Shown: positions 1-57,804, counted from the stretch's first letter. The stretch: DNA of 64,000 bases from Balanoglossus misakiensis (GCA_040954595.2 CM082592.2:1178001-1242000); one strand, 5' to 3'. Program-made: numbers and translations. The notes: a model not told the origin generated them from the sequence alone.

Positions 1-3000
1 TTGAAATTTTACTAAGGTTTTACGAAAATCCAATATGGCCGCCATAATCTTCGACCAATCACAAAGATCTTCGCAAACTTGATAGACATCAGATAGGTGA
101 CTACATACCCTAAACCCCGTGTCTCGGTTATCACCAGTTCTAGAGAAGAAGATTTTTGAAATTTAAGCCGGATTTCAGAAAAAAAATTGTAGCAAAAAAA
201 CTGCAACATTGACAGCAAAATATCCAATTACAAAAATGATGGGTAGAAGGTAGACTACCTGCACACCAAATTTGAAGTCGATCTGACTTGTAGTTTCTGA
301 GATCTAAGATTTGCATTTTTTCAGAAAATCCAATATGGCCGCCAGGTCACGTGACCAATTAAAAATTCAAGGGTTCAATGCACATCTACTCATTGACCTT
401 GACCACTGTAGCAAGTTTCAGAAGTGTACCTGCAGCGGTGTCTGAGATCTAGAGCGACAAAGAATTGACACAAGAAAAAAGAAAGAAAGAAAGAAAGAAA
501 GACAGAAAAACCCCAACGAAACCAATAGGGCCCAAGCGCTGGCTTGCGCTTGGGCCTTAATTAAAGCTGCAAGCAGCATTGTCCGGGCCCAAGCTCTATT
601 ATCTGATCAGATTATTAGATATGCACATAATTAATGAGTAGAAACATAATGCTGTGTTTTATCCCATGAAATATCAAGGTTATATCTATGTTTGGTGCTG
701 ATATAGTGTTAAGTAGGTCAAAGGTCATCTGAGGTCACCCAAAATTTGTGCAGAAAATTTTGACCCATAGTGGTCCATGTCCAACAAAAACCAGACCTCT
801 AGCCCTTTTGGTTAGCCCGGAATTAGGTATGCACATAAATAGTGAGTAAAGCAGGCGTCACAGGTGACCCAAAACTTTGGCTTTTCATTATGGCCCCATA
901 CCTCCAAATGCCAAGGCTGTGCCTGCTTTGGATGCTGAGATATGCAAAAGTAGGTCAAAGGTCATCTGAGGTCATCCAAAATTTGGGCAAAAAATTTTGA
1001 CCCCATACTGGTCCATGTCCAACAAAAACCAAACCTCTAGCTCAATTGGTTCGCCTGTAATTAGCTATGCACATAATTAATGAGGTCAGCAGAGGTCAAA
1101 GGGGTCATGAAAAGTAGCAAAATATTTTGATCACACACTAATCCACATGCATCAAAAACAAAACGTCTAGCCCTATAGGTTAGCCTGGAAATAGATATGC
1201 AGAAATAATAATGTGTGAAAAGTAGGTCAAAGGTCATGTGAAAAATCGCCAAAAATTTGTAACATATTGTAGTCATATGACGATTGATATCCATAAAAAG
1301 AATTTGTATGCTATTAATTTTTATACTAGAAAAAGGAATTTTAATTTTTCACTGCTTTTTACAAAATCCAATATGGCCGCCATAATCTTCGACCAATCAC
1401 ATTCCTCTTCCCAAACTTGATAGACATCTGTTTAATGAACACACACACCAAATCTTGCGACTCGGTTATCGCCGGTTCTTGAGAAGAAGATTTTTGAAAT
1501 TTTACTAGGGTTTTTCGAAAATCCAATATGGCCGCCATAATCTTCGACCAATCACAATGATCTTCGCAAACTTGATAGACATCAGTTAGGTGACCACATA
1601 CCCCAAACCCCGTGTCTCGGTTATCACCGGTTCTGGAGAAGAAGATTTTTGAAATTTAAGCCAGATTTCAGAAAAAAAATTGTAGCAAAAAAACTGCAAC
1701 TTTGTCAGCATAATTTCCAATTACAAAAATGATTGACAGAAGGTAGTCTACCTGCACGCCAAATTTGAAGTTGATCTGACTTGTAGTTTCTGAGATCTGA
1801 GATTTGCATTTTTTCAGAAAATCCAAGATGGCCGCCAGGTCATGTGACTAATTAAAAATTCATGGGTTCAATGCACGACTACTCATTGACCTTGACCACT
1901 GTAGCAAGTTTGAGAACTGTACCTGCAGTGGTGTCTGAGATCTAGAGCGACAAAGAATTGACAGAAGAATAAAGAAAGAAGAAAGAAAGAAAGAATTAAA
2001 GCTGCAAGCAGCATTGTCCGGGCCCAAGCTCTATTATCTGATCTGATTATTAGATATGCACATAATTAATGAGTAGAAACATAATGCAGTGTTTTATCCC
2101 ATGAAATATCAAGGTTATATCTATGTTTGGTGCTGATATAGTGTTAAGTAGGTCAAAGGTCACCCAGGGGTCACCCACAATTTGGGCAGAATATTTTGAC
2201 CCATAGTGGTCAATGTCCAACAAAAACCAGACCTCTAGCCCTTTTGGTTAACCCGGAATTAGGTATGCACATAAATAATGCGTAAAGCAGGTGTCACAGG
2301 TGACCCCACAACTTTGGCTTTTCATTATGGCCCCATACCTCCAAACGCCAAGGTTGTACCTGCTTTGGATGCTGAGATATGCAAAAGTAGGTCAAAGGTC
2401 ATCTGAGGTCACCCAAAATTTGGGTAGAAAATTTTGACCCGTAGTGGTCCATGTATAACAAAAACAAAACCTCTAGGTCTATTGGTTCATCTGTAATTAG
2501 GTATGTGCATATTTAATGAGTAAAGCAGGTGTCACAGGTGACCCAAAACTTTGGCTTTTCATTATGGCCCCATACCTCCAAACGCCAAGGCTGTATCTGG
2601 TGTGGATGTCGAGATATGCAAAAGTAGGTCAAAGGTCACCCGAGGTCACCCAACATTTGGGCAAAATATTTTGACCCCATACTGGTCCATGTATAACAAA
2701 AACAAAACCTCTAGGTCTATTGGTTCATCTGTAATTAGGTATATGCATATTTAATGAGGTCAGCAGAGGTCAAAGGGGTCATGAAAAGTAGCAAAATTTT
2801 TTGATCACATACAAATCCACATACATCTAAAACCAAACTTATAGCCCTATTGGTTAGCCAGGAATTAGATATGCAGAAAAATGATGCGTCAAAAGTAGGT
2901 CAAAGGTCATTGCCAAAATTACCAAAATATTTATAGCTTATTCTTGTCATATGATGATTCATATCCATAAAAAGAATTTCTGTGCTATCAATTTTTAGGC

Positions 3001-16294: not shown

Positions 16295-16957
16295 CTAAAC
16301 TTGTGCCTTTTATTTTGGTGCTATTGTGCTCACTGACCAATAGACAGTCACTGTACAGGACTATTGCACAGACCTGAATTCCACAATAAGACATAGACAT
16401 AGCTTAACCATAGAGGTATAATTAAAGGTATAAATTTAATAAAAAAATTAATATAAAAAAATCGGTCGATTTTTCATATTATTTTTTTTCGCTTAAAATT
16501 ATTGACAAATGCTAGGCTAGCTGCACACCAAAGTTGGAGATGGTCGGCCTAACAGATTTTGAGATATGTATGCATATTTATCCAAAATACGATGTGGTCA
16601 TAGCTTTACTATGTGAAGTATAGGCCGATGGCTTGGGCGAAAAAAATATGAAAAATAATACTTAAAAATCTTCTTCTCAAAATTGACATGGCCTATGGCC
16701 TTGACATTTGGCATGTAGAACCCTGGCCATATGGCCCACAAAGTATCTTAACAGAATTTTGATATCTCCATTCATATGCAAATTAGGCCAAATTGAAAAT
16801 TTTGCCCATATATGGTCATCAGGTCACATGACTAATTACACATTCACAAGGGTACTGCACCAGCTCTAATAGCCCTGCACCATTGTGCCAAATGTGAGAT
16901 TTGTAGGTTCAGCCGTTTTCAAGATCTAGCTGGACAAAAAAACGACACAAGAAGAAG

Positions 16958-16989
<32 letters not shown>

Positions 16990-16993
16990 GAAG

Positions 16994-17172
16994 AAAAACC
17001 CCAGTAATACCAATAGGGCCCAAGCCTGCTGGGCTTGGGCCCTAAGAAGAAGAAGAAGTAGAAGAAAAACCAGGATAATAACAATAGGGCCCAAGCGCTG
17101 CATGCGCTTGGGCCCTAAAAAACCCCAACGAAACCAATAGGGCCCAAGCGCTTGCGTGCGCTTGGGCCCTAA
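16994..17172. repeat. Stack of 3 hairpin caps
   Basis: Caps at ~16994, 17066 and 17117. Confidence 0.95.
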
Positions 17173-20029
17173 TTAAAGCTGCAAGCAGCATTGTCCGGGC
17201 CCAAGCTCTATTATCTGATCAGATTATTAGATATGCACATAATTAATGAGTAGAAACATAATGCTGTGTTTTATCCCATGAAATATCAAGGTTATATCTA
17301 TGTTTGGTGTTGATATAGTGTTAAGTAGGTCAAAGGTCACCAAGAGGTCACCCACAATTTGGGCAGAAAATTTTGATCCATAGTGGTCCATGTCCAACAA
17401 AAACCAGACCTCTAGCCCTTTTGGTTAGCCAGGAATTAGGTATGCACATAAATAATGAGTTAAGCAGGTGTCAAAGGTGACCCAAAACTTTGGCTTTTCA
17501 TTATGGCCCCATACCTCCAAACGCCAAGGTTGTATCTGCTGTGGATGTCGAGATATGCAAAAGTAGGTCAAAGGTCACCCGAGGTCACCCAACATTTGGG
17601 CAAAATATTTTGACCCCATACTGGTCCATGTATAACAAAAACAAAACCTCTAGGTCTATTGGTTCATCATTAATTAGGTATGCGCATATTTAATGAGGTC
17701 ACCAGAGGTCAAAGGGGTCATGAAAAGTAGCAACATTTTTTGATCACATACAAATCCACATACATCAAAAACCAAACTTATAGCCCTATTGGTAAGCCTG
17801 GAATTAGATATGCAGAAAAATGATGCGTCAAAAGTAGGTCAAAGGTCATTGCCAAAATTACCAAAATATTTATAGCTTATTCTTGTCATATGATGATTCA
17901 TATCCATAAAAAGAATTTCTGTGCTATCAATTTTTAGGCTAGAAAAGGAATTTTTACTTTTTAATCGTTTTTCACAAAATCCAATATGGCCGCCATAATC
18001 TTCGACCAATCACATTCCCCTTCGCAAACTTGATAGACACCTGTTTAATGACCACACACACCAAATCTTGTGACTCGGTTATCGCCCGTTCTTGAGAAGA
18101 AGATTTTTGAAGTTTTACTATGGTTTTTCGAAAATCCAATATGGCCGCCATAATCTTCGACCAATCACAATGATCTTCGCAAACTTGATAGACATCAGTT
18201 AGGTGACCAAATACCCCAAACCGCGTGATTCAGTTATCACCGGTTCTGGAGAAGAAGATTTTTGAAATTTAAGCCAGATTTCAGAAAAAAAATTGTAGCA
18301 AAAAAACTGCAACATTTACAGCAAAATATCCAATTACAAAAATGATGGGTAGAAGGTAGACTACCTGCACACCAAATTTGAAGTCGATCTGACTTGTAGT
18401 TTCTGAGATCTGAGATTTGCATTTTTTCAGAAAATCCAATATGGCCGCCAGGTCACGTAACTAATTAAAAATTCACAGGTTCAATGCACGACTACTCATT
18501 GACCTTGACCACTGTAGCAAGTTTCAGAAGTGTACCTGCAGCGGTGTCTGAGATCTAGAGCGACAAAGAATTGACACAAGAATAAAGAAAGAAGAAAGAA
18601 TTAAAGCTGCAAGCAGCATTGTCCGGGCCCAAGCTCTATTATCTGATCTGATTATTAGATATGCACATAATTAATGAGTAGAAACATAATGCTGTGTTTT
18701 ATCCCATGAAATATCATGGTTATATCTATGTTTAGTGCTGATAAAGTGTTAAGTAGGTCAAAGGTCACCCAGAGGTCACCCATAATTTGGGCAGAAAATT
18801 TTGACCCATAGTGGTCCATGTCCAACAAAAACCAGACCTATAGCACTTTTGGTTAGCCCGGAATTAAGTATGCACATAAATAATGAGTTAAGCAGGTGTC
18901 ACAGGTGACCCACAACTTTGGCTTTTCATTATGGCCCCATACCTCCAAACGCCAAGGCTGTATCTGCTGTGGATGCTGATATTTGCAAAAGTAGGTCAAA
19001 GGTCACCAGAGGTCACCCAACATTTGGGTAAAATTTTTTGACCCCATACTAGTCCTGTCCAACAAAAACAAAACCTCTAGGTCTATTGGTTCGCCTGTAA
19101 TTAGCTATGCACATAATTAATGAGGTCAGCAGGGGTCAAAGGGGTCGTGAAAAGTAGCAAAAAATTTTGATCACACACTTATCCACATACATCAACAACC
19201 AAACTTATAGCCCTATTGGTTAGCCTGGAATTAGATATGCAGAAAAATGATGCGTCAAAAGTAGGTCAAAGGTCATTGCCAAAATTACCAAAATATTTAT
19301 AGCATATTGTAGTCATATGATGATCCATATCCATAAAAAGAATTTCTGTGCTATCAATTTTTAGGCTAGAAAGGGAATTTTTACTTTTTAATCGTTTTTC
19401 ACAAAATCCAATATGGCCGCCATAATCTTCGACCAATCACATTCCTCTTCGCAAACTTGATAGACATCTGGTGAATGACCACACACACAAAATCTTGTGA
19501 CTCGGTTATCACCGGTTCTCGAGAAGAAGATTTTTGAAATTTTACTAGGGTTTTTCGAAAATCCAATATGGCCGCCATAATCTTCGACCAATCACAATGC
19601 TCTTCGCAAACTTGATAGACATCAGTTAGGTGACCACATACCCCAAACCCCGTGTCTCGGTTATCACCGGTTCTAGAGAAGAAGATTTTTGAAATTTAAG
19701 CCAGATTTCAGAAAAAAAATTGTAGCAAAAAAACTGCAACATTGACAGCATAATTTCCAATTACAAAAATGTTTGACAGAAGGTAGTCTACCTGCACGCC
19801 AAATTTGAAGTCGATCTGACTTGTAGTTTCTGAGATCTGAGATTTGCATTTTTTCAGAAAATCCAAGATGGCCGCCAGGTCATGTGACTAATTAAAAATT
19901 CATGGGTTCAATGCACGACTACTCATTGACCTTGACCACTGTAGCAAGTTTGAGAACTGTACCTGCAGTGGTGTCTGAGATCTAGAGCGACAAAGAAATG
20001 ACAGAAGAATAAAGAAAGAAGAAAGAAAG

Positions 20030-21198
20030 AATTAAAGCTGCAAGCAGCATTGTCCGGGCCCAAGCTCTATTATCTGATCTGATGCTAATATAGTGTTAAG
20101 TAGGTCAAAGGTCACCCGAGGTCACCAACATTTGGGCAAAATATTTTGACCCCATACTGGTCCATGTATAACAAAAACAAAACCTCTAGGTCTATTGGTT
20201 CATCATTAATTAGGTATGTGCATATTTAATGAGGTCAACAGAGGTCAAAGGGGTTATGAAAAGTAGCAAAATTTTTTGATCACATACAAATCCACATACA
20301 TCAAAAACCAAACTTATAGCCCTATTGGTTAGCCTGGAATTAGATATGCAGGAAAATGATGCGTCAAAAGTAGGTCAAAGGTCATTGACAAAATTACCAA
20401 AATATTTTTAGCTTATTCTTGGCATATGATGATTCATATCCATTAAAAAGAATTTCTGATCTATCAATTTTTAGGCTGGAAAGGGAATTTTTACTTTTTA
20501 ATCGTTTTTCACAAAATCCAATATGGCCGCCATAATCTTCGACCAATCACATTCATCTTCGCAAACTTGATAGACATCTGTTTAATGACCACACACACCA
20601 AATCTTGTGACTCAGTTATCGCCGGTTCTTGAGAAGAAGATTTTTGAAATTTTACTAGGGTTTTTCGAAAATCCAATATGGCCGCCATAATCTTCGACCA
20701 ATCACAATGATCTTCGCAAACTTGATAGACCTCAGTTTGGTGACCACATACCCCAAACCGCGTGACTCGGTTATCGCCGGTTCTGGAGAAGAAGATTTTT
20801 GAAATTTTGACCAGATTTCAGAAAAAAAATTGTAGCAAAAAAACTGCAACATTGACAGCAAAATATCCAATTACAAAAATGATGGGCAGAAGGTACACTA
20901 CCAGCACACCAAATCTGAAGTAAATCTGACTTGTAGTTTCTGAGATCTGAGATTTGCATTTTTTCAGAAAATCCAATATGGCCGCCATGTCACGTGACTA
21001 ATTAAAAATTCAAGGGTTCAATGCACGACTACTCATTGACCTTGACCACTGTAGCAAGTTTCAGAAGTGTACCTGCAGCGGTGTCTGAGATCTAGAGCGA
21101 CAAAGAATTGACACAAGAATAAAGAAAGAAAGAAAGAAGAAAGAAAAACCCCAACGAAACCAATAGGGCCCAAGCGCTGGCTTGCGCTTGGGCCCTAA
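20030..21198 (-). mobile_element. Uninterrupted, internally deleted subfamily A copy
   Basis: Head joins TCTGATCTGATG directly to CT(A/G)ATATAGTG, the same deletion as in copy 21205; one cap at 21145-21197. Confidence 0.8.
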
Positions 21199-24100
21199 AG
21201 ACAGAATTAAAGCTGCAAGCAGCATTGTCCGGGCCCAAGCTCTATTATCTGATCTGATGCTGATATAGTGTTAAGTAGGTCAAAGGTCACCCGAGGTCAC
21301 CCAAAATTTTGGGCAAAATATTTTGACCCCATACTGGTCCATGTATAACAAAAACAAAACCTCTAGGTCTATTGGTTCATCTGTAATTAGGTATGTGCAT
21401 ATTTTATGAGGTCAGCAGAGGTCAAAGGGGTCATGAAAAGTAGCAAAATTTTTTGATCACATACAAATCCACATACATCAAAAACCAAACTTATAGCCCT
21501 ATTGGTTAGCCTGCAATTAGATATGCAGAAAAATGATGCGTCAAAAGTAGGTCAAAGGTCATTGCCAAAATTACCAAAATATTTATAGCTTATTCTTGTC
21601 ATATGATGATTCATATCCATAAAAAGAATTTCTGTGCTATCAATTTTTAGGCTAGAAAAGGAATTTTTACTTTTTAATCGTTTTTCACAAAATCCAATAT
21701 GGCCGCCATAATCTTTGACCAATCACATTCCCCTTCGCAAACTTGATAGACATCTGTTTAATGACCACACACACCAAATCTTGTGACTCGGTTATCGCCC
21801 ATTCTTGAGAAGAAGATTTTTGAAGTTTTACTATGGTTTTTCGAAAATCCAATATGGCCGCCATAATCTTCGACCAATCACAATGATCTTCGCAAACTTG
21901 ATAGACATCAGTTAGGTGACCACATACTCCAAACCGCGTGACTCAGTTATCACAGGTTCTGGAGAAGAAGATTTTTGAAATTTAAGCCAGATTTCAGAAA
22001 AAAAATTGTAGCAAAAAAACTGCAACATTTACAGCAAAATATCCAATTACAAAAATGATGGGTAGAAGGTAGACTACCTACACACCAAATTTGAAGTCGA
22101 TCTGACTTGTAGTTTCTGAGATCTGAGATTTGCATTTTTTCAGAAAATCCAATATGGCCGCCAGGTCACGTGACTAATTAAAAATTCAAGGGTTCAATGC
22201 ACGACTACTCATTGACCTTGACCACTGTAGCAAGTTTGAGAAGTGTACCTGCAGCGGTGTCTGAGATCTAGAGCGACAAAGAATTGACACAAGAATAAAG
22301 AAAGAAAGAAGAAAGAAGGAAAGACAGAATTAAAGCTGCGAGCAGCATTGTCGGGCCCAAGCGCTGATCTTGAATTATATATGCACAGTATGAATGAGAA
22401 GAAACAGAATTTTCTATCAGATGTATTATCTCATGACATAACAAGGATGTGTGTATTTTTGCTGCTGAAATAGGGTGAAGTAGGTCAAAGGTCACCTGAG
22501 GTCACCCAACATTTGGGCAAAAAATTTTGACCCCATACTGGTCCATGTCCAACAAAAACCAAAACTCTAGCTCTATTGGTTCGCCTGTAATTAGGTATGT
22601 GCATATTTAATGAGGTCAGCAGGTGTCACAGGTGACCCAAAAATGTGGCTTTACATTTTGGTCCCATCCTACCAAATGCCATGGCTGTATCTGCTCTGGA
22701 TGCTGAGATATGCGAAAGTAGGTCAAAGGTCACCAGAGGTCACCCAACATTTGGGCAAAAAATTTTGATCCCATACTTGTCCATGTCCAACAAAAACCAA
22801 ACCTCTAGCTCTATTGGTTCGCCTGTAATTAGCTATGCACATAATTAATGAGGTCAGCAGAGGTCAAAGGGGTCATGAAAAGTAGCAAAATATTTTGATC
22901 ACACACTAGTCCACAAGCATCAAAAACCAAACGTCTAGCCCTATAGGTTAGCCTGGAATTAGATATGCAGAAATAATAACGCGTGATAAGTAGGTCAAAG
23001 GTCATGTGAAAAATCGCCAAAAAATTGTTACATATTTTAGTCACATGACGATTGATATCCATAAAAAGAATTTGTATGCTATCAATTTTTAGACTAGAAA
23101 AAGGAATTTCAATTTTTCACTGCTTTTTACAAAATCCAATATGGCCGCCATAATCTTTGACCAATCACAATGCTCTTTGCAAACTTGATAGACATCAGTG
23201 TAGTGACCATACTCCCCGAATCTTGTGACTCAGTCATCGCCCGTTCTGGAGAAGAAGATTTTTGGAGTTTAACTATGGTTTTTCGAAAATCCAATATGGC
23301 CGCCATAATCGTCGACCAATCACAATGATCTTCGCAAACTTGATAGACATCACTTAGGTGACCACATACCCCAAACCCCGTGTCTCAGTTATCATCGGTT
23401 CTGGAGAAGAAGATTTTTGAAATTTAAGCCAGATTTCAGAAAAAAAATTGTAGCAAAAAAACTGCAACATTGACAGCAAAATTTCCAATGACAAAAATGA
23501 TGGGTAGAAGGTAGTCTACCTGCATGCCAAATTTGAAGTCGATCTGACTTGTAGTTTCTGAGATCTGAGATTTGTATTTTTTCAGAGAATCCAATATGGC
23601 CGCCAGGTCACGTGACTAATTAAGTATTCACAAGTCACTGCACATCTACTCATTGACCTTGACCACTGTAGCAAGTTTGAGAAGTGTACCTGCAGTAGTT
23701 TCAGAGATCTCGTTGGCCGAAGAATTGACACAAGAATAAAGAAAGAAAGAAAGAAAGAAAGAAAGAATTAAAGCTGCGAGCAGCATTGTCGGGCCCAAGC
23801 GCTGATCTTGAATTACATATGCACAGTATGAATGAGAAGAAACAGAATTTTCTATCGGATGTATTATCTCATGACATAACAAGGATGTGTTTATTTTTGC
23901 TGCTGAAATAGGGTGAAGTAGGTCAAAGGTCACCCAACATTTGGGCAATATTTTTGACCCATACTGGTCCATGTCCAACAAAAACCAAAACTCTAGCTCT
24001 ATTGGTTCGTCTGTAATTAGGTATGTGCATATTTAATGAGGTCAGCAGTTGTCACAGGTGACCCCAAAATGTGGCTTTACATTTTGGTCCCATCCTACCA

Positions 24101-26628
24101 AATGCCATGGCTGTATCTGCTCTGGATGCTGAGATATGCGAAATTAGGTCAAAGGTCACCAGAGGTCACCCAACATTTGGGCAAAAAATTTTGATCCCAT
24201 ACTGGTCCATGTCCAACAAAAACCAAACCTCTAGCTCTATTGGTTCGTCTGTAATTAGCTATGCACATAATTAATGAGGTCAGCTGAGGTCAAAGGTGTC
24301 ATGAAAAGTAGCAAAATATTTTGATCACACACTAATCCACATTCATCAAAAACCAAACGTCTAGCCCTATAGGTTAGCCTTGAATTAGATATGCAGAAAT
24401 AATAATGCGTGATAAGTAGGTCAAAGGTCATGTGAAAAATCGCCAAAAAATTGCATAATATTTTAGTCACATGACGATTGATATCCATAAAAAGAATTTG
24501 TATGCTATCAATTTTTAGACTAGAAAAAGGAATTTCAATTTTTCACTGCTTTTTACAAAATCCAATATGGCCGCCATAATCTTCGACCAATCACAATGCT
24601 CTTTGCAAACTTGATAGACATCAGTGTAGTGACCATACTCCCCGAATCTTGCAACTCAGTCATCTCCCGTTCTGGAGAAGAAGATTTTTGGAGTTTAACT
24701 ATGGTTTTTCGAAAATCCAATATGGCCACCATAATCTTCGACCAATCACAATGATCTTCGCAAACTTGATAGACATCAGTTAGGTGACCACATACCCCAA
24801 ACCCCGTGTCTCAGTTATCACCGGTTCTGGAGAAGAAGATTTTTGAAATTTAATCCAGATTTCAGAAAAAAAATTGTAGCAAAAAAACTGCAACATTGAC
24901 AGCAAAATTTCCAATTACAAAAATGATGGGTAGAAGGTAGTCTACCTGCATGCCAAATTTGAAGTCGATCTGACTTGTAGTTTCTGAGATCTGAGATTTG
25001 CATTTTTTCAGAAAATCCAATATGGCCGCCAGGTCACGTGACTAATTAAGTATTCACAAGTCACTGCACATCTACTCATTGACCTTGACCACTGTAGCAA
25101 GTTTGAGAAGTGTACCTGCAGTAGTTTCAGAGATCTCGTTGGCCGAAGAATTGACACAAGAATAAAGAAAGAAAGAAAGAAAGAAAGAAAGAATTAAAGC
25201 TGCAAGCAGCATTGTCGGGCCCAAGCGCTGATCTTGAATTATATATGCACAGTGTGAATGAGAAGAAGCAGAATTTTCTATCGGATGTATTATCTCATGA
25301 CATAACAAGGATGTGTGTATTTTTGCTGCTGAAATAGGGTGAAGTAGGTCAAAGGTCACCTGAGGTCACCCAACATTTGGGTAATTTTTTTTTACCCATA
25401 CTGGTCCATGTCCAATAAAAACCAAAACTCTAGCTCTATTGGTTTGCGTGTAATTAGGTATGTGCATATTTAATGAGGTCCGCAGGTGTCACAGGTGACC
25501 CAAAAATGTGGCTTTACATTTTGGTCCCATCCTACCAAATGCCATGGCTGTATCTGCTCTGGATGCTGAGATATGCGAAAGTAGGTCAAAGGTCACCAGA
25601 GGTCACCCAACATTTGGGCAAAAAATTTTGATCCCATACTGGTCCATGTCCAACAAAAACCAAACCTCTAGCTCTATTGGTTCGCCTGTAATTAGCTATG
25701 CACATAATTAATGAGGTCAGCAGAGGTCAAAGGGGTCATGAAAAGTAGCAAAATATTTTGATCACACATTAATCCACATTCATCAAAAACCAAACGTCTA
25801 GCCCTACAGGTTAGCCTGGAATTAGATATGCAGAAATAATAACGCGTGATAAGTAGGTCAAAGGTCATGTGAAAAATCGCCAAAAAATTGTAACACATTT
25901 TAGTCACATGACGATTGATATCCATAAAAAGAATTTGTATGCTATCAATTTTTAGACTAGAAAAAGGAATTTCAATTTTTCACTGCTTTTTACAAAATCC
26001 AATATGGCCGCCATAATCTTCGACCAATCACAATGCTCTTTGCAAACTTGATAGACATCAGTGTAGTGACCATACTCCTCGAATCTTGCGACTAAGTCAT
26101 CGCCCGTTCTGGAGAAGAAGATTTTTGCAGTTTAACTATGGTTTTTCGAAAATCCAATATGGCCGCCATAATCTTCGACCAATCACAATGATCTTCGCAA
26201 ACTTGATAGACATCAGTTAGGTGACCACATACCCCAAACCCTGTGTCTCAGTTATCACCGGTTCTGGAGAAGAAGATTTTTTAAATTTAAGCCAGATTTC
26301 AGAAAAAAAATTGTAGCAAAAAAACTGCAACATTGACAGCAAAATATCCAAATACAAAAATGATGGGTAGAAGGTAGTCTACCTGCATGTCAAATTTGAA
26401 GTCGATCTGACTTGTAGTTTCTGAGATCTGAGATTTGCATTTTTTCAGAAAATCCAATATGGCCGCCAGGTCACGTGACTAATTAAGTATTCACAAGTCA
26501 CTGCACATCTACTCATAGACCTTGACCACTGTAGCAAGTTTGAGCAGTGTACCTGCAGTAGTTTCAGAGATTTAGTTGGCCGAAGAATTGACACAAGAAA
26601 AAAGAAAGAAAGAAAGAAAGAAAGAAAG

Positions 26629-26948
26629 AAAAACCCCAACGAAACCAATAGGGCCCAAGCGCAAGCAAGCGCTTGGGCCCTAAAAATTCCAACGAAACCA
26701 ATAGGGCCCAAGCGCTTGCTTGCGCTTGGGCCCTAAAAATTCCAACGAAACCAATAGGGCCCAAGCGCTTGCTTGCGCTTGGGCCCTAAAAACCCCAACG
26801 AAACCAATAGGGCCCAAGCGCTGGTATGCGCTTGGGCCCTAAAAACCCCAACGAAACCAATAGGGCCCAAGCGCTGGTATGCGCTTGGGCCCTAAAAACC
26901 CCAACGAAACCAATAGGGCCCAAGCGCTGGTATGCGCTTGGGCCCTAA
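26629..26948. repeat. Stack of 6 hairpin caps (3 B-type, 3 A-type)
   Basis: 53 bp period; loops AAGCAA, TTGCTT, TTGCTT, TGGTAT x3. Confidence 0.95.
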
Positions 26949-35696: not shown

Positions 35697-37244
35697 AATA
35701 TAGCTGCAAGCAGCGATGACGGGCCCAAGCTTAAGCCGAAGGTCAAAGGTCATAAGCGGTCACCCGAAATTTTGGCAAGAAATTTTGACCCCATACTGGT
35801 CCGTGTCCCACAAGAACGAAATCTCTAGCCCTATTGGTTCGCCTACAATTAGGTATGCGCATAATTAATGAGATAAAGTGTAAGGCTCCATCAGGAGTTC
35901 CATCCCTCCAAATGCCAAGGCTGTATCTGCTGTGGATGCCGAGATATGGTAAATTAGGTCAAAGGTCACCTGAGGTCACCCAAAATTTGGGCAAAAAATT
36001 TTGACCCCATACTGGTCCATGTTCAGCATAAATCAAACCTCTAGCCCTATTGGTTAGCCTGGAATTAGGTATGCACATAATTAATGAGATAAGCAGGTGT
36101 CACAGGTGACCCCAATTTTGGCTTTTCAATTTTAGTCCCAACCCTCCAAACGCCAAGTCTGTACCTGCTCTGGATGCGGAAATATAGGAAAGTAGGTCAA
36201 AGGTCACCTGAGGTCATCCAAAATTTAGGCAATTTTTTTTAACCCCATACTGGTCCATGTCCCACAAGCACGAAACCTCTAACCCTACTGGTTAGCCTGT
36301 AATTAGGTATGCACATAATTAATGAGATATGCAGGTGTCACAGGTGACCCCCATTTTGGCTTTTCAACTTTAGTCCCAACCCTCCAAACGCCAAGTCTGT
36401 ACCTGCTGTGGATGCCGAGATATAGGAAAGTAGGTCAAAGGTCACCTGAGGTCACCCAAAATTTGGGCAAGAAATTTTGACCCTATACTGGTCCATGTCT
36501 CACAAGAACGAAACCTCTAGCCCTCTTAGTTAGCCCAGAATTAGGTATGCACATAATTAATGAGTTAAGCAGGTGTTACAGGTGAGACTAAACTTGTGCC
36601 TTTTATTTTGGTGCTATTGTGCTCACTGACCAATAGACAGTCACTGTACAGGACTATTGCACAGACCTGAATTCCACAATAAGACATAGACATAGCTTAA
36701 CCATAGAGGTATAATTAAAGGTATAAATTTAATAAAAAAATTAATATAAAAAAATCGGTCGATTTTTCATATTATTTTTTTTCGCTTAAAATTATTGACA
36801 AATGCTAGGCTAGCTGCACACCAAAGTTGGAGATGGTCGGCCTAACAGATTTTGAGATATGTATGCATATTTATCCAAAATACGATGTGGTCATAGCTTT
36901 ACTATGTGAAGTATAGGCCGATGGCTTGGGCGAAAAAAATATGAAAAATAATACTTAAAAATCTTCTTCTCAAAATTGACATGGCCTATGGCCTTGACAT
37001 TTGGCATGTAGAACCCTGGCCATATGGCCCACAAAGTATCTTAACAGAATTTTGATATCTCCATTCATATGCAAATTAGGCCAAATTGAAAATTTTGCCC
37101 ATATATGGTCATCAGGTCACATGACTAATTACACATTCACAAGGGTACTGCACCAGCTCTCATAGCCCTGCACCATTGTGCCAAATGTGAGATTTGTAGG
37201 TTCAGCCGTTTTCAAGATCTAGCTGGACAAAAAAACGACACAAG

Positions 37245-37276
<32 letters not shown>

Positions 37277-37332
37277 GAAGAAAAACCCCAGTAATACCAA
37301 TAGGGCCCAAGCCTGCTGGGCTTGGGCCCTAA
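35697..37332 (-). mobile_element. Uninterrupted subfamily C-prime copy, near-identical to 14627-17045 minus the MITE
   Basis: Diagnostic head GCAGCGATGACGGGCCCAAGCTTAAGCCG, shared only with the copy at 14627; same tail and cap. Confidence 0.85.
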
Positions 37333-37585: not shown

Positions 37586-40500
37586 TTAAAGCTGCAAGCA
37601 GCATTGTCCGGGCCCAAGCTCTATTATCTGATCAGATTATTAGATATGCACATAATTAATGAGTAGAAACATAATGCTGTGTTTTATCCCATGAAATATC
37701 AAGGTTATATCTATGTTTGGTGTTGATATAGTGTTAAGTAGGTCAAAGGTCACCCAGAGGTCACCCACAATTTGGGCAGAAAATTTTGACCCATAGTGGT
37801 CCATGTCCAACAAAAACCAGATCTCTAGCCCTTTTGGTTAGCCCGAAATTAGGTATGCACATAAATAATGAGTTAAGCAGGTGTCACAGGTGACCCAAAA
37901 CTTTGGCTTTTCATTATGGCCCCATACCTCCAAACGCCAAGGCTGTATCTGCTGTGGATGTCGAGATATGCAAAACAGGTGAAAGGTCATCCGAGGTCAC
38001 CCAACATTTGGGCAAAAAAATTTGACCCAATACTGGTTCATGTCCAACAAAAACCAAACCTTTAGGTCTATTGGTTCATCTGTAATTAGGTATGCGCATA
38101 TTTAATGAGGTCAGCAGAGGTCAAAGGGGTCATGATAAGTAGCGAAATTTTTTGATCACATACAAATCCACATACATCAAAAACCAAAATCATAGCCCTA
38201 TAGGTTAGCCTGGAATTAGATATGCAGAAAAAAACGATGTGTCAAAAGTAGGTCAAAGGTCATTGCCAAAATTACCAAAATATTTGGGGTAGGTCCTGGC
38301 TGGGATGATACCAATGTGCACAAAAATCAGAACTCTGGTGCATTTAAAACACGTAGTATGAGCTATATATGCATATATGCAGGTTCTTAAAAAAGTAGGT
38401 CAAAGGTCATGTGAAAATTTCCAAAATATTTGCAACATATTCTAGTCATATCACGACTCATATCCATAAAAAGAATTTGTTTGCTATCTATTTTTAGACT
38501 AGAAAAATGATTTCTTAATTTTCGCTGGTTTTTACAAAATCCAATATGGCCGCCATAATCTTCGACCAATCACATTCCCCTTCGCAAACTTGTTAGACAT
38601 CTGTTTAATGACCACACACACCAAATCTTGTGACTCAGTTATCGCCGGTTCTTGAGAAGAAGATTTTTGAAATTTTACTAGGGTTTTTCGAAAATCCAAT
38701 ATGGCCGCCATAATCTTCGACCAATCACAATGCTTCTTATCAAACTTGATAGACATCAGTTAGGTGACCACATACCCCAAACCGCGTCACTCGGTTATCG
38801 CCGGTTCTGGAGAAGAAGATTTTTGAAATTTAAGCCAGATTTCAGAAAAAAAATTGTAGCAAAAAAACTGCAACATTTACAGCAAAATATCCAATTACAA
38901 AAATGATGGGTAGAAGGTAGACTACCTGCACACCAAATTTGAAGTCGATCTGACTTGTAGTTTCTGAGATCTGAGATTTGCATTTTTTCAGAAAATCCAA
39001 TATGGCCGCCAGGTCACGTGACTAATTAAAAATTCAAGGGTTCAATGCACGACTACTCATTGACCTTGACCACTGTAGCAAGTTTGAAAACTGTACCTGC
39101 AGTGGTGTCTGAGATCTAGAGCGACAAAGAAGTGAACCAAGAATAAAGAAAGAAAGAAAGAATTAAAGAAAGATTAAAGCTGCGAGCAGCATTGTCGGGC
39201 CCAAGCGCTGATCTTGAATTACATATGCACAGTATGAATGAGAAGAAACAGAATTTTCTATCGGATGTATTATCTCATGACATAACAAGGATGTGTGTAT
39301 TTTTGCTGCTGAAATAGGGTGAAGTAGGTCAAAGGTCACCTGAGGTCACCCAACATTTGGGCATTTTTTTTTACCCATACTGGTCCATGTCCAACAAAAA
39401 CCAAAACTCTAGCTCTATTGGTTCGTCTGTAATTAGGTATGTGCATATTTAATGAGGTCAGCAGGTGTCACAGGTGACCCAAAAATGTGGCTTTACATTT
39501 TGGTCCCATCCTACCAAATGCCATGGCTGTATCTGCTCTGGATGCTGAGATATGCGAAAGTAGGTCAAAGGTCACCAGAGGTCACCCAACATTTGGGCAA
39601 AAAATTTTGATCCCATACTGGTCCATGTCCAACAAAAACCAAACCTCTAGCTCTATTGGTTCGCCTGTAATTAGCTATGCACATAATTAATGAGGTCAGC
39701 AGAGGTCAAAGGGGTCATGAAAAGTAGCAAAATATTTTGATCACACACTAATCCACATGCATCAAAAAACAAAAGTCTAGCCCTATAGGTTAGCCTGGAA
39801 TTAGATATGCAGAAATAATAACGCGTGATAAGTAGGTCAAAGGTCATGTGAAAAATGGCCAAAAATTTGTAACATATTTTAGTCACATGACGATTGATAT
39901 CCATGAAAAGAATTTAGATGCTATCAATTTTTAGACAAGGAAAAGGAATTTCAATTTTTCACTGCTTTTTACAAAATCCAATATGGCCGCCATAATCTTC
40001 GACCAATCACAATGCTCTTTGCAAACTTGATAGAAATCAGTGTTGTGACCATACTCCCGGAATCTTGCGACTCAGTTATCGCCCGTTCTGGAGAAGAAGA
40101 TTTTTGCAGTTTTACTATAGTTTTTCGAAAATCCAATATGGCCGCCATAATCTTCGACCAATCACAATGCTTCTTATCAAACTTGATAGACATCAGTTAG
40201 GTGACCACATACCCCAAACCACGTCACTCGGTTATCACCGGTTCTTGAGAAGAAGATTTTTGAAGTTTTAGTTGGATTTTTCGAAAATCAAATATGGCGG
40301 CCAAAGTCACGTGACCGCTCGAGATTTTATTATCAAACTTTGTAGGGCAGAGGCCATGTGTACTATGTACCAAATTTGAACTTGATTTGCCTTGTAGTTT
40401 TTGAGAAGAAGTCATTTACATTTTTTCAGAAAATCCAATATGGCCGCCAGGTCACGTGACTAATTAAGTATTCACAAGTCACTGCACATCTACTCATTGA

Positions 40501-43500
40501 CTTTGACCACTGTAGCAAGTTTGAGCAGTGTACCTGCAGTAGTTTCAGAGATTTAGTTGGCCGAAGAATTGACACAAGAATAAAGAAAGAAAGAAAAATT
40601 CCAACGAAACCAATAGGGCCCAAGCGCTTGCGCGCGCTTGGGCCCTAAAAAACCCCAACGAAACCAATAGGGCCCAAGCGCTGCTGTGCGCTTGGGCCCT
40701 AATTAAAGCTGCGAGCAGCATTGTCGGGCCCAAGCGCTGATCTCGAATTATATATGCACAGTATGAATGAGAAGAAACAAAATTTTCTATCGGGTGTATT
40801 ATCTCATGACATAACAAGGACGTGTGTATTTTTGCTGCTGAAATAGGGTGAAGTATGTCAAAGGTCACTTGAGGTCACCCAACATTTGGGCAAATTTTTT
40901 TGACCCATACTGGTCCATGTCCAACAAAAACCAAAACTCTAGCTCTATTGGTTCGCATGTAATTAGGTATGTGCATATTTAATGAGGTCAGCAGGTGTCA
41001 CAGGTGACCCAAAAATGTGGCTTTACATTTTGGTCCCATCCTGCCAAATGCCAGGGATGTATCTGCTCTGGATGCTGAGATATGCGAAAGTAGGTCAAAG
41101 GTCACCAGAGGTCTTCCAAAATTTGGGCAAAAAATTTTGATCCCATACATGTCCATGTCCAACAAAAACCAAACCTCTAGCTCTATTGGTTCGCCTGTAA
41201 TTAGCTATGCACATAATTAATGAGGTCAGCAGAGGTCAAAGGGGTCATGAAAAGTAGCAAAATATTTTGATCACACACTAATCCACATGCATCAAAAACC
41301 AAACGTCTAGCCCTATAGGTTAGCCTTGAATTAGATATGCAGAAATAATAATGCGTGATAAGTAGGTCAAAGGTCATGTGAAAAATCGCCAAAAATTTGT
41401 AACATATTTTAGTCATATGACGATTGATATCCATGAAAAGAATTTGTATGCTATCAATTTTTAGACTAGTAAAAGGAATTTCAATTTTTCACTGCTTTTT
41501 ACGAAATCCAATATGGCCGCCATAATCTTCGACCAATCACAATGCTCTTTGCAAACTTGATAGACATCAGTGTTGTGACCATACTCCCCGAATCTTGCGA
41601 CTCAGTTATCGCCAGTTCTGGAGTAGAAGATTTTTGCAGTTTTACTATGGTTTTTCGAAAATCCAATATGGCCGCCATAATCTTCGACCAATCACAATGC
41701 TATTTATCAAACTTGATAGACATCAGTTAGGTAACCACATACCCCAAACCGCGTCACTCGGTTATCACCGGTTCTGGAGAAGAAGATTTTTGAAATTTAA
41801 GCCAGATTTCAGAAAAAAAATTGTAGCAAAAAAACTGCAACATTTACAGCAAAATATCCAATTACAAAAATGATGGGTAGAAGGTAGACTACCTGCACAC
41901 CAAATTTGAAGTCCATCTGACTTGTAGTTTCTGAGATCTGAGATTTGCATTTGTTCAGAAAATCCAATATGGCCGCCAGGTCACGTGACTAATTAAAAAT
42001 TCAAGGGTTCAGTGCACGACTACTCATTGACCTTGACCACTGTAGCAAGTTTGAAAACTGTACCTGCAGTGGTGTCTGAGATCTAGAGCGACAAAGAAGT
42101 GAACCAAGAATAAAGAAAGAAAGAAAGATTAAAGCTGCGAGCAGCATTGTCGGGCCCAAGCGCTGATCTTGAATTACATATGCACAGTATGAATGAGAAA
42201 AAACAGAATTTTCTATCGGATGTATTATCTCATGACATAACAAGGATGTGTGTATTTTTGCTGCTGAAATAGGGTGAAGTAGGTCAAAGGTCACCTGAGG
42301 TCACCCAACATTTGGGCAATTTTTTTGACCCATACTGGTCCATGTCCAACAAAAACCAAAACTCTAGCTCTATTGGTTCGTCTGTAATTAGGTATGTGCA
42401 TATTTAATGAGGTCAGCAGGTGTCACAGGTGACCCAAAAATGTGGCTTTACATTTTGGTCCCATCCTACCAAATGCCATGGCTGTATCTGCTCTGGATGC
42501 TGAGATATGCGAAAGTAGGTCAAAGGTCACCAGAGGTCACCCAACATTTGGGCAAAAAATTTTGATCCCATACTGGTCCATGTCCAACAAAAACCAAACC
42601 TCTAGCTCTATTGGTTCGCCTGTAATAAGCTATGCACATAATTAATGAGGTCAGCAGAGGTCAAAGGGGTCATGAAAAGTAGCAAAATATTTTGATCACA
42701 CACTAATCCACATGCATCAAAAACCAAAAGTCTAGCCCTATAGGTTAGCCTGGAATTAGATATGCAGAAATAATAACGCGTGATAAGTAGGTCAAAGGTC
42801 ATGTGAAAAATTGCCAAAAATTTGTAACATATTTTAGTCACATGACGATTGATATCCATGAACAGAATTTAGATGCTATCAATTTTTAGACAAGGAAAAG
42901 GAATTTCAATTTTTCACTGCTTTTTACAAAATCCAATATGGCCGCCATAATCTTCGACCAATCACAATGCTCTTTGCAGACTTGATAGACATCAGTGTTG
43001 TGACCATACTCCCCGAATCTTGCGACTCAGTTATTGCCCGTTCTGGAGAAGAAGATTTTTGCAGTTTTACTATGGTTTTTCGAAAATCCAATATGGCCGC
43101 CATAATCTTCGACCAATCACAATGCTTCTTATCAAACTTGATAGACATCAGTTAGGTGACCACATACCCCAAACCGCGTCACTTGGTTATCACCGGTTCT
43201 GGAGAAGAAGATTTTTGAAATTTAAGCCAGATTTCAGAAAAAAAATTGTAGCAAAAAAACTGCAACATTTACAGCAAAATATCCAATTACAAAAATGATG
43301 GGTAGAAGGTAGACTACCTGCACACCAAATTTGAAGTCGATCTGACTTGTAGTTTCTGAGATCTGAGATTTGCATTTTTTCAGAAAATCCAATATGGCCG
43401 CCAGGTCACGTGACTAATTAAAAATTCAAGGGTTCAATGCACGACTACTCATTGACCTTGACCACTGTAGCAAGTTTGAAAACTGTACCTGCAGTGGTGT

Positions 43501-45001
43501 CTGAGATCTAGAGCGACAAAGAAGTGAACCAAGAATAAAGAAAGAAAGAAAGAAAGAAAGAAAGAATTAAAGCTGCGAGCAGCATTGTCGGGCCCAAACG
43601 CTGATCTTGAATTACATATGCACAGTATGAATGAGAAGAAACAGAATTTTCTATCGGATGTATTATCTCATGACATAACAAGGATGTGTGTATTTTGCTG
43701 CTGAAAATGGGTGAAGTAGGTCAAAGGTCACCTGAGGTCACCCAACATTTGGGCAATTTGTTTGACCCATACTGGTCCATGTCCAACAAAAACCAAAACT
43801 CTAGCTCTATTGGTTCGTCTGTAATTAGGTATGTGCATATTTAATGAGGTCAGCAGGTGTCACAGGTGACCCAAAAATGAGGCTTTACATTTTGGTCCCA
43901 TCCTACCAAATGCCATGGCTGTATCTGCTCTGGATGCTGAGATATGCGAAAGTAGGTCAAAGGTCACCAGAGGTCACCCAACATTTGGACAAAAATTTTT
44001 GATCCCATACTGGTCCATGTCCAACAAAAACCAAACCTCTAGCTCTATTGGTTCGCCTGTAATTAGCTATGCACATAATTAATGAGGTCAGCAGAGGTCA
44101 AAGGGGTCATGAAAAGTAGCAAAATATTTTGATCACACACTAATCCACATGCATCAAAAACCAAAAGTCTAGCCCTATAGGTTAGCCTGGAATTAGATAT
44201 GCAGAAATAATAACGCGTGATAAGTAGGTCAAAGGTCATGTGAAAAATCGCCAAAAATTTGTAACATATTTTAGTCATATGACGATTGATATCCATGAAC
44301 AGAATTTAGATGCTATCAATTTTTAGACAAGGAAAAGGAATTTCAATTTTTCACTGCTTTTTACAAAATCCAATATGGCCGCCATAATCTTCGACCAATC
44401 ACAATGCTCTTTGCAGACTTGATAGACATCAGTGTTGTGACCATACTCCCCGAATCTTGCGACTCAGTTATTGCCCGTTCTGGAGAAGAAGATTTTTGCA
44501 GTTTTACTATGGTTTTTCGAAAATCCAATATGGCCGCCATAATCTTCGACCAATCACAATGCTTCTTATCAAACTTGATAGACATCAGTTAGGTAACCAC
44601 ATACCCCAAACCGCGTCACTTGGTTATCACCGGTTCTGGAGAAGAAGATTTTTGAAATTTAAGCCAGATTTCAGAAAAAAAATTGTAGCAAAAAAACTGC
44701 AACATTTACAGCAAAATATCCAATCACAAAAATGATGGGTAGAAGGTAGACTACCTGCACACCAAATTTGAAGTCGATCTGACTTGTAGTTTCTGAGATC
44801 TGAGATTTGCATTTTTTCAGAAAATCCAATATGGCCGCCAGGTCACGTGACTAATTAAAAATTCAAGGGTTCAATGCACGACTACTCATTGACCTTGACC
44901 ACTGTAGCAAGTTTGAAAACTGTACCTGCAGTGGTGTCTGAGATCTAGAGCGACAAAGAAGTGAACCAAGAATAAAGAAAGAAAGAAAGAAAGAAAGAAA
45001 G

Positions 45002-45384
45002 AAAAACCCCAACGAAACCAATAGGGCCCAAGCGCTGCTGTGCGCTTGGGCCCTAAAAACCCCAACGAAACCAATAGGGCCCAAGCGCTGCTGTGCGCTT
45101 GGGCCCTAAAGAACCCCAACGAAACCAATAGGGCCCAAGCGCTGCTATGCGCTTGGGCCCTAAAAACCCCAACGAAACCAATAGGGCCCAAGCGCTGGTA
45201 TGGGCTTGGGCCCTAAAAATTCCAACGAAACCAATACGGGCCCAAGCCTGGCTTGGCTTGGGCCCGTAAAAAATTCCAACGAAACCAATACGGGCCCAAG
45301 CCTGGCTTGGCTTGGGCCCGTAAAGAAAGAAAAACCCCAACGAAACCAATACGGGCCCAAGCCTGGCTTGGCTTGGGCCCGTAA
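45002..45384. repeat. Terminal stack of 7 hairpin caps closing the cluster
   Basis: Loops TGCTGT x2, TGCTAT, TGGTAT, then 3 D-type caps; unrelated repeat follows. Confidence 0.95.
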
Positions 45385-48300
45385 TAAATTCTTTTCTTAG
45401 TTTCAAACGGGTAGAGATACTTTCCACACGGGTTTTCTGACATTGAATTCCCGTTCATCAACTCAGATTTCCTACAGCATAAGTCGGCTAAAACCCTGAC
45501 ACTCTAGAGCAGAAACAGTTGCACACTGGTAACGTTGAACAAGTCGATTTTTCTACGGCCTGGCTCGGCTAAATCTCCGTCACAATAGTCATGTTTCATA
45601 AGTCAGGTCCATGACATATGTACCGACATCTGTGATTGGTCCATCTGGTAATCTTAGGTCCACTTGAGGCACGGTGATTGGAGGGACCTTATGTGTTAGG
45701 TCTTATTATTATGTATTATTCACTAGACCTTGTAGGTTAGGTCTTATTACTATGTATTATTCACTTTACAGCTCCCTCATTGGTTAATGTGTAGGTCTGG
45801 TCCTCCAGTGTTCACTGCCTCATTATGCAGGACCTTGTAGGTTAGGTCTTATTAACATGCATTTATTCAATTTTCAGCTCCCTGATTGGTTAATGTGTAG
45901 GTCTCCAATTTTCACTGCCTCGTTATGCAAAGTCTTTTGTACTTTCTGAATACAGTTGTCGTATTCTGTCTGGCATGCTGCCTGCGCGTTGTCGAAGCTC
46001 GATCCCAGTGTATAAAGAAAGGCACTCATATAATGATTGGATTTAACCTTTCCTTCACTATTCATGGCATTTTTTTGTGATACTGTGAACTAGATACTCG
46101 AAATAAAAATTGCCAGGAGAATTTTTTTATTTTATTTCCAGTGGCGGTTTGTTGAAATGGGCTAGTGTTTTGTTACGTAATGCTTTTCAGCGCATCACTT
46201 CGTGTAACACCTGGCTGAATACGAAGTGTGTGCTATTCATTCGAGCAAACCAAAAATATCTTACAATAGAACTGTTTAGAATAGCATTGCATTTCTTTAA
46301 TTGGGATACCTCATTAGTTGCTTTACAGGTATGATTACTTTTATTGTACTTCTTTCACGAAGCTGCACCGTCATAGTTCCATTTTTATGAAAACAATATA
46401 CGAATGTATAAACGGACAACGTACTCCTTTTCACAACATCTACGTCAAAACAAATTTACTTTAAAATAGTAAAACAACAATAATAATATTGATGATGAGA
46501 AGTAGGAGGGTGATTTAAGAAAATATACAACTGTTAGCAAAAATGCTTAGATGTGTTAATCAGATTTTCAAAGTCCATCTAAAAATCATTTAATCTTTCC
46601 AGGGTGCGGTTTATGTTGGAGATAGTATCAGTCAGGCTATTTCTCAGAAAATTAATGAATGATCTGCGGACATCCCGAATAATGTGTTACCACAACGCTA
46701 GCCAGGAAGCACATGGGACATTTCACAATGAGGCAGTGAACACTGGGAAACCAGACTGACACGTTAACCAATCAGGGAGCTGTATGGTGAATAAATACAT
46801 ATTAATATGACCTAACCTACAAGGTCCTGTATTATGAGGCAGTGAACACATGGGGGACCAAACTGACACGTTAACCAATCAGGGAGCTGTAAAGCGAAAA
46901 ATGCATAGTAATAAGACCTAACCTACAAGGTCTAGTGAATAATACATAATAATAAGACCTAACCTACAAGGTCCCTCCAATCAGCGTGCCGCAAGTGGAC
47001 CTAAGAGAAGCGGATAAACCAATCATAACATGCAAAACATGTGTATAGGACGTGTAATGTAGGTCATTTTGAAACAGGACTAATATGACAGACACTAGCG
47101 TACGTTAGCAACGGTGATCAAGTCAGATTTTCTACGGCATGGCTTGGATAAAGCCCCGGCACTCTAGAGCAGAAACACGCGTACAGAGACCACGTTGATC
47201 AAGTCTGATCTCCTACGGCTTGGCTCGACTAAAACCCCGGCACACTATGACAGACACTAGCGTTCGTTAGCAACGTTGATCAAGTCAGATTTCCTACGGC
47301 ATGGCTTGGCTAAAGCCCTGGCACTCTAGACCAGAAACACGCGTACAGAGAACACGTTGATCAACTCACATTTCCTTCGGCCTGGCACGGCTGATGCCTC
47401 GGCACTAAATACAGGACACAGACTGGCGTAAGTTATCAACGGTGATTACGTCGGATTTCCTACGGCCTGGCTCTGCAAAAGACCCGACACTCTAGCACAA
47501 AGACGTTGGCTAAGTCGGACAAACCGAAGAGGTAAAGTCACAGCGGGTTGTTCGGGTAGGACTGCATTATTGCCCGTCAATTTATAGAGAAAGCCCGAAT
47601 TTAACCAGGGCGTTTCAAACACCGACGTTAGTTGGGGGCACGGCCTGCAGTACTGCCGGGTAAGCTGACATAGGCGTACCGCATGTAATGTAGGGGGGGG
47701 AACAGAACGGTTCAATACTACATTTATTAGATATCAGCTAATTTTGGACAATCATCTAAAATCTAAATCATTTTTTCATATTTGGATATCTGATGATGTA
47801 TGAAATTTCCATTATATGTAAAAATGGTGCTGATTATAAAAAATGCACTCTGAATGAGCTGATTTAATACAAAATTGCGTTTTATTCGTTTTTGCACCAA
47901 AAAGGTCATTTTTAGGCAAAACCTTCTTTATTTTTTTAATTCGGTGACCTTATCATATATAAACAATTGCTTGTATGTTAACAGTTTTTATGACTCTTAA
48001 AAGCAGTGACACTGGCGGCATTCAAGACGAAAATAACCATTTTAGCCACATTTTGGTCAAAAATGGTAAATTTTTGAAAATTACGAAAAATAACACTTTT
48101 CTACATTTTCGGTAAACTGATGGAGTATAGAATGCCCTTCGTATGTATATATCGATACAATTTCCACAAAAGACAGTCTAATTTGGCTCACTGCAGACAA
48201 AATTGCATGTTATCAAATTTTGCTTGAAAATGTCATTTTTAGAAAAACAATTAAAAAAAGCTTTAATTGTTCTTCGAATTCGGTGCCCTGATTATATATG

Positions 48301-56299: not shown

Positions 56300-56416
56300 G
56301 AACAGTCTTCATATTTTTCGTTAGAAGAGGCAGGACTAAAAAAATTCAGTACCTTGCAACACTTTTGGAGCGGTGTCGTATTTTACTGAGCGGGATTATT
56401 TCCCCCAGGAGATATA

Positions 56417-57737: not shown

Positions 57738-57804
57738 GTATGGAACGCCGTTACTGTCATGTGTAGTGCAATATTAATACGTGATGTGCATTTCGATATA
57801 GCTT

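Follow-up and report, generated by a model that had tools for sequence, protein, structure and literature searches.

Positions 1 to 45382 of the 64,000-nucleotide (nt) stretch of Balanoglossus misakiensis DNA analysed here (GCA_040954595.2 CM082592.2:1178001-1242000; hereafter the window) hold one family of mobile elements only, with all copies on the same strand, and the best overall explanation is probably a nest of non-coding Helitron2/Helentron copies of 1.2-1.7 kb, each inserted whole beside the 5' end of an earlier copy with the addition of two A's. The window as a whole is animal-like repeat DNA (GC content ~0.39, free of N). On the strand presented, one end of the element is the head, TTAAAG or ATATAG followed by a 12-nt palindrome, and the other is the cap, a 53-nt unit with a long hairpin that represents the 5' end of the element on the minus strand. 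The junctions between heads, caps and the microsatellite tracts of the copies that they interrupt establish both the order of nesting and a net gain of two A's per insertion.

A last-in-first-out parse of the nest finds 29 heads and 37 caps and leaves no head open, with six levels of nesting within the window. The eight caps that lack a head in the window were assigned to copies starting to its left; provided that these are true parents, the depth would be ten or eleven levels, and some of them could stem from composite elements carrying a second 5' end, a structure proposed in Fusarium (PMC5148889). After removal of their children, copies measure 1165-1736 nt, apart from one of 1923 nt with additional internal repeat sequence and one of 2415 nt with a foreign insert. 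Heads fall into four types, with (GAAA)n tracts in A and B and (GAA)n tracts in C and D. The similarity of caps assigned by stack order tracks the similarity of the body ends (rho 0.72), a value matched by none of 3000 random pairings and by 2 of 3000 shuffles within blocks, so the pairing beats chance and is not arbitrary; first-in-first-out (queue) pairing gave a rho of 0.49. Divergence of children from their parents is 1-20%, and copies 14629 and 35698, which are 99.9% identical, sit in different parents. A tree of the 21 A/B copies, with C and D left out, holds only the pairs 3665/5097 and 42129/43567. Local self-copying was considered as the cause of the nesting and rejected, as the parent is the nearest copy in only 1 of 21 cases.

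The parent copy 18601 illustrates how interrupted tracts rejoin. Its GAA stands directly before head 20032, the cap ending at 21196 is followed by a short remnant of the tract and then by head 21207, and the cap ending at 26840 is followed by the A5 leader of the parent. Excising both children with two bases each yields a 30-nt string that occurs uninterrupted once in the window, at 489-518. An initial annotation of this DNA had described the same rejoining for this copy (as 18599, with the uninterrupted form at ~490-519), which is right within one base, and for copies 559 and 1994, whose remnants lie at 7155 and 7075 (given as ~7155 and 7076). Far from failing in most cases, excision of the child together with two bases restored the parent tract in 19 of 19 parents (21 children) across the whole window, and control excisions of 0, 1, 3 and 4 bases did so in 0, 1, 3 and 1 of them, respectively; the list of allowed tract units was drawn up after the two-base result was already visible. 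The ruler is rigid where children sit at the cap leader (16 cases), with 17 nt from the last G of the tract to the cap anchor, as also found in 10 of 10 childless copies, and for the five mid-tract children the test relies on the unit length of the tract.

The bases preceding the 29 heads are G-AA in 17 cases, cap-AA in eight, three A's in one (30947) and a single A in three (35698, 39174 and 42129), and AA follows the cap in 37 of 37. The earlier generalization that nearly all junctions read G-AA-head and cap-AA thus stands for the caps and fails for the heads, and of the one-A heads it gave two (as 39173 and 42128) and missed the third, 35698. These three children are independent, with different parents and two child subfamilies, and all have GA on the left and AA on the right, and excision of two bases still restores the leader of the parent. 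A duplication of 2 bp predicts GA after the cap, and since AA is seen in all three one-A cases, a 2-bp target duplication fails. The number of A's on the two sides of copy 35698 (one and seven) compared to those of its 99.9% twin 14629 (two and two) shows that two A's travel with the element. The AA is not a target duplication: two A's are added without the target being duplicated. What survives of the AA core proposed at the outset is therefore the net gain, and the duplicated or shared dinucleotide is lost. The outermost cap, ending at 45382, passes into another repeat; the empty form of this repeat has one AA after G and is present in contigs and three times in the window. The left junction of this host insertion falls outside the window.

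Placing both A's at the head fails for 3 of the 29 elements, whereas all 29 accord with an A at each end, and equally with two at the cap. Targets were tallied on the minus strand in the 19 events without a sibling junction, the other 10 of 29, with sibling junctions, being set aside. With one T at each end (the T...T register) the targets are TTTT^T in 11, TTTT^C in two, TCTT^T in four, TCTT^C in one and TTCT^T in one, so that TTTT^Y accounts for 13 of 19 and a pyrimidine follows the cut in all 19. Helitron2 elements are reported to insert between TTTT and T/C without target site duplications (TSDs), with TCTT among the tetramers tolerated by related families (PMC3627910). The T...T register is favoured because 13 of 19 targets fit this published rule compared to 2 of 19 when both T's are placed at the 5' end, and we consider it probable that the element begins and ends with one T on the minus strand. 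That the same Helentron-type element instead carries both T's at its 5' end (TT...) and none at its 3' end, inserting before a target T, appears unlikely, for TTTT then precedes the cut in only 2 of 19 events. Several observations nevertheless weigh on its side and against the T...T reading: it also fits the terminal letters of all 29 elements, T follows the cut in 19 of 19 clean events, two A's stand at 37 of 37 caps and one A at 3 of 29 heads (Fisher p 0.08), and a Proto-Helentron has been described with a 5' TT (PMC4067079). Thomas et al. moreover give at least two T's per end and variable numbers of T (PMC4067079), in contrast to the three ends with a single T and the constant gain of two in this family.

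The anatomy of the copies points to the class. In minus-strand order they comprise a T, a 5' hairpin with the 5' repeat, a 17-nt leader, a (TTTC)n or (TTC)n tract, central repeats (155 bp and 238 bp), the 3' repeat, a palindrome and a T. Asymmetric inverted repeats of 8-13 bp are found in 29 of 29 copies, 2 nt from the 5' and 24-25 nt from the 3' end under the T...T reading, and their length shifts jointly in the head and the cap from one subfamily to the next (mostly 12 bp in B and 11 bp in C). The 5' hairpin, which includes the 5' repeat, has arms of 13-14 bp and z values of -5.1 to -6.9 in the three caps folded, and the 3' palindrome has 5-bp arms in 29 of 29 heads, with a predicted stem in the three folded. 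No protein family was matched in six frames of copy 18601 (Pfam) and no RNA family over 17000-27200 (Rfam). Helitron2 elements start with a 5' T and form two hairpins, and their asymmetric terminal inverted repeats (ATIRs), 8-15 bp long, are set back by 0-2 bp at the 5' end and by 20-30 bp at the 3' end (PMC3627910); the module order of HINE/DINE-1 elements (PMC4067079; PMC7492417; HELIANO PMC11417382) is that of this family. Judged by its sequence features, the family very probably belongs to the HINE/Helitron2 kind (Helentron, DINE-1, pearl), and the initial Helentron/DINE-1 assignment gains support from terminal anatomy, module order and target rule alike.

Comparison with described systems shows both the resemblance and its limits. 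Non-autonomous Helitron2 elements such as Helitron-1N1_CRe (PMC3627910) share the 5' T, the hairpin with the 5' ATIR, the 3' ATIR 20-30 bp from the end and upstream of a small hairpin, and the TTTT^T/C insertion without TSDs, whereas the body of the present family is of the animal type, combining a microsatellite with central repeats, truncated copies bearing long TSDs are absent from the 29 in the window, and repeated insertion into an element's own 5' tract goes unmentioned in the passages of that paper on these elements. HINE/DINE-1 elements (PMC4067079) likewise combine a subterminal inverted repeat (subTIR) with a nearby inverted repeat, a microsatellite, central repeats, a 3' subTIR and a palindrome, and prefer TT without modifying the target, while in the mite families the 3' subTIR lies 38-60 bp from the end, farther than here. 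Oyster Cg_HINE, pearl and DTC84 elements (PMC7492417, PMC3879986) share the module order, central repeats of 155-167 bp, AA at both ends and a 15-mer of Cg170-type arrays; they differ in the sequences of subTIR and palindrome and in having GTCY/ACGG instead of the (TTTC)n or (TTC)n tract, a substitution that makes the tract of this family itself a target. This 15-mer belongs to the 155-bp central repeat; the window has 44 occurrences, against 0 in 100 shuffles, and the oyster Cg_HINE arrays have 3465. Against this assignment it must be said that the 3' palindrome is not more stable than shuffled sequence, that the oyster link stands at the level of a motif (one 15-mer, no alignment, and no match to any listed Cg_HINE subTIR), and that a RepHel gene with these ends was not found in pattern scans, which returned only short or chimeric contigs. 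In published text the head 12-mers occur in 10 papers, none with a title that concerns transposons, and they were absent from the text of the HELIANO and Thomas supplements (figures not covered).

It is doubtful that the copies are instead non-autonomous elements of the CryptonV type, for which a tyrosine recombinase (YR) would excise a circle and use a very short AA core to recombine it into microsatellites, with a mismatched core giving the one-A junctions. Microsatellite specificity is known for some CryptonV families (PMC8869645), a circular intermediate is expected for both systems and suits the constant gain of two A's, the cap hairpin (14-bp inverted arms around 6 nt) resembles a YR site with arms of 11-13 bp and a spacer of 6-8 bp, which counts against a Helitron2 origin, and a Crypton-like fragment at 55433-55921 bears a QRICH1 domain (E 7e-7, narrowly missing the Pfam cut-off). 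This fragment, however, lies 10 kb away, and there is no sequence of the element within 45383-64000. Cryptons with known ends have direct repeats of 4-6 bp or no terminal repeats (PMC3212892), whereas here the identity at the junctions is at most 2 bp, the crossover would lie outside the hairpin spacer and subterminal inverted repeats are present; the end structure of CryptonV is not given in the literature passages that name it. The complete module order and target rule are those of Helitron2/HINE, and the tyrosine recombinase offered by the initial annotation as a second option thus becomes less likely, with neither a 4-6 bp terminal direct repeat nor a linked recombinase gene found in the window.

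A cut-and-paste (DDE) MITE with a target duplication of 2 bp (AA), the mechanism originally put forward for pearl and DTC84, both described with an AA TSD (PMC3879986), is largely refuted and highly improbable: AA does flank 26 of 29 elements on both sides, but all three informative events, with GA to the left, AA to the right and a gain of still two, would each need two compensating changes, and the inverted repeats are asymmetric and subterminal. That no repeated transposition took place, bodies and caps having been multiplied separately by unequal crossing-over or joined by an assembly artefact, is hardly credible despite the tandem runs of heads and of caps, the eight caps without a head and a nest spanned by no read or contig, since it conflicts with the exact last-in-first-out balance and subfamily-matched caps, the rejoining remnants, the divergence of children from parents and one contig of run X2 (which may be the window's own sample) with a cap-cap joint and 38 letters on its shorter side.

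Chemistry of the junctions is explained by the Helitron2/Helentron class as it is known, and the one unusual feature is how strongly the family prefers its own end. The A5 run at the cap leader holds 21 of 28 nested non-sibling closures, and all 21 in-window children lie in the tract zone in one orientation, although this zone supplies only 71 (6.4%) of the 1117 TTTT^Y sites counted over both strands of the 29 copies; the target rule by itself leaves the self-nesting unexplained, which is a further point against Helitron2 chemistry as the whole account. Subfamilies are matched as well: A/B parents took 14 A/B children and one C, C parents took six C/D and no A/B (Fisher p 1.3e-4, in a test that ignores the order of activity bursts and the eight copies with parents that begin beyond the window, among them a C under an A-like cap), so that 20 of 21 in-window children sit in a parent of their own subfamily group. 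Between the host repeat copy and its intact neighbour there are three base differences in 205, a rough hint of fast growth of the nest. Nested Helitrons of Fusarium (PMC5148889) and maize (PMC3288121) also show self-insertion leading to stacked termini, with joined ends in FoHeli1, but these are few cases with short duplicated ends compared to 36 events here in one small zone, in one orientation and at six levels in the window. Beyond these Fusarium and maize cases, a literature search on self-targeting Helentron nests found no account of a fixed self-target in an element's own tract.

Movement of these copies would likely be by rolling circle, driven by a RepHel enzyme encoded elsewhere that nicks an element end and makes a single-stranded copy, probably a circle with a TT junction, which would be joined between TTTT (or TCTT) and a following T or C. 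The T^C targets of the T...T rule explain the one-A junctions, and the TTTT^T/C rule makes the A5 run at the cap leader a hot spot. The near-exclusive use of a site ~53 nt inside the resident 5' end would need a further cue, a step on weaker ground than the others, most likely a longer target motif in the pyrimidine tract or binding of the enzyme to the resident hairpin. We would go further only tentatively, with the suggestion of a self-homing Helentron lineage whose transposase may dock on the resident 5' hairpin and place the new copy ~53 nt inside, with docking matched by subfamily, such that safe-harbour nests of tens of kb might grow quickly; the habit could be conserved in distant animals that share only the 30-nt 3' end and have an (AAT)n tract. 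MINE-1, a Helitron-like family of Lepidoptera, reportedly disrupts (GAAA)n microsatellites, going by the title of a 2010 article by Coates et al.

Public contigs from four runs, which represent no more than two samples, one of them perhaps that of the window itself, contain the family. Tallies count distinct contexts and not copies, and one-A or no-A junctions may fall below the matching length, so that their absence is uninformative. Loose ends starting at the first A before the head were found in at least 34 contigs from three runs (14, 19 and 1), with eight more including one further T, and loose ends after cap and AA in at least 14 contigs from two runs (7 and 7); their flanks are mixed and A-rich (agreement ~0.5). 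Outermost and dispersed copies sit in A-rich DNA that is not microsatellite, and insertions within the nest in microsatellite. Among the matches listed, no contig bridged cap-AA-head with 31 letters on both sides. A pattern scan of metagenomes gave 121 matches, from which 24 were picked by their downstream sequence; at least two A's precede the head in 19 of these, one in three and none in two (one a chance match, L078, and one a decayed head). A related family in the metagenome contigs has only the first 30 nt of the head in common with that of the window. The head itself is presumably common in teleost genomes. In contig L021 (560-740) a tract, a cap, an (AAT)n remnant, a second cap, AA and a head follow one another, with a cap different from that of the window family, and L081 (230-330) reads cap-AA-head; together these show that stacking like that in the window occurs in another organism. 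The longest stop-free frame among 14 metagenome loci checked is 183 amino acids, and viral scans gave 1, 6 and 0 matches, none with the family ends. The single genome match (L127), in a contig filed under a bacterial metagenome-assembled genome, joins bacterial genes to animal-like DNA with a head and an LTR-bounded insert and is likely a chimeric assembly; neither a cap nor RepHel was seen in it.

Table 1. Coordinates of the nested copies, their parts and the host repeat in the window.
Feature	Position	Strand	Remarks
Grandparent copy containing 18601	17173..26946	-	
Parent copy, subfamily A	18601..26893	-	1490 nt without its two children; core coordinates, one more base per side gives T...T ends
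First child, uninterrupted 1165-nt copy, mid-tract insertion	20032..21196	-	Target TCTT^T under the T...T reading
3' palindrome	20037..20048	-	5-bp arms, 2-nt centre; stability not above that of shuffles
3' subTIR	20056..20065	-	10 bp here, 8-13 bp across 29 copies; 23-24 nt from core end
Central 155-bp tandem repeat, two units	20504..20808		Includes the 15-mer common to oyster Cg_HINE arrays
5' hairpin with 5' subTIR	21164..21197	-	14-bp arms, 6-nt loop; DNA fold -18.9 kcal/mol, z -6.9
Remnant of the tract of parent 18601 between its two children	21197..21206		10 nt
Second child, at A5 leader of parent 18601	21207..26840	-	Contains the chain 22330-26787 > 23768-26734 > 25194-26681
Stack of six 53-nt caps (5' ends)	26629..26946	-	Close 25194, 23768, 22330, 21207, 18601 and 17173, last-in-first-out
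Reference uninterrupted tract-to-cap junction	489..518		
One-A child	35698..37330	-	1 A on the left, 7 A on the right; 99.9% identity with copy 14629-17043 (2 A on either side, other parent)
One-A child in parent 37586	39174..40646	-	1 A on the left, 6 A on the right
One-A child in parent 40703	42129..45107	-	
Outermost cap, end of nest	45353..45382	-	
Host repeat (81/162-bp family) holding the nest	45383..45587		Empty paralogous sites at 48390 (98.5% over 205 nt), 50285 and 52018

Some single copies and caps have peculiarities of their own (coordinates in Table 1 apart). In the cap at 26651-26680 the loop usual for B-type caps stands in reverse complement, a flipped hairpin centre seen in 1 of 37 caps that fits template switching or hairpin repair in single-stranded DNA. 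In the tract of copy 37586, an odd unit at 39156-39172 consists of GAA and the first six letters of a head; it could be either a variant first unit of the tract or the scar left when a child was deleted between two AAAG. Copy 14629 harbours a ~760-nt insert with long terminal inverted repeats (15543-16278), absent from its 99.9% twin 35698, which is very recent and MITE-like. The host repeat family, at 45383-45587 and 47082-52900, has inner repeats of 81/162 bp in tandem units of 1.73 kb and very high depth in runs X1 and X2, and it is interrupted by an insert at 45633-47025 with long inverted ends (45633-45963 versus 47025-46688, 84%). Farther along the window, the Crypton-like fragment (minus strand) is cut off by a tandem array of 18-22 bp units that recurs inverted at 53756-53830, a Harbinger-type DDE transposase fragment at 57111-57773 (minus strand; DDE_Tnp_4, E 1.5e-33) adjoins tandem arrays of 18-21 bp units, and the broken end of a non-LTR retrotransposon ORF2 occupies 62378-63982 (minus strand; zf-RVT, E 7e-9) in several frames.

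The nest amounts to a natural collection of filled and empty sites. In one animal HINE family, the AA that has long been reported as a target duplication in pearl and DINE-like elements is not one, and the placement of the terminal T's is narrowed to two registers. If the bias towards the family's own 5' end is due to docking of the enzyme, it would represent a rule of target selection not described for Helentrons in the literature searched, and would provide a route from dispersed elements to tandem blocks of 53 bp and 1.5 kb.

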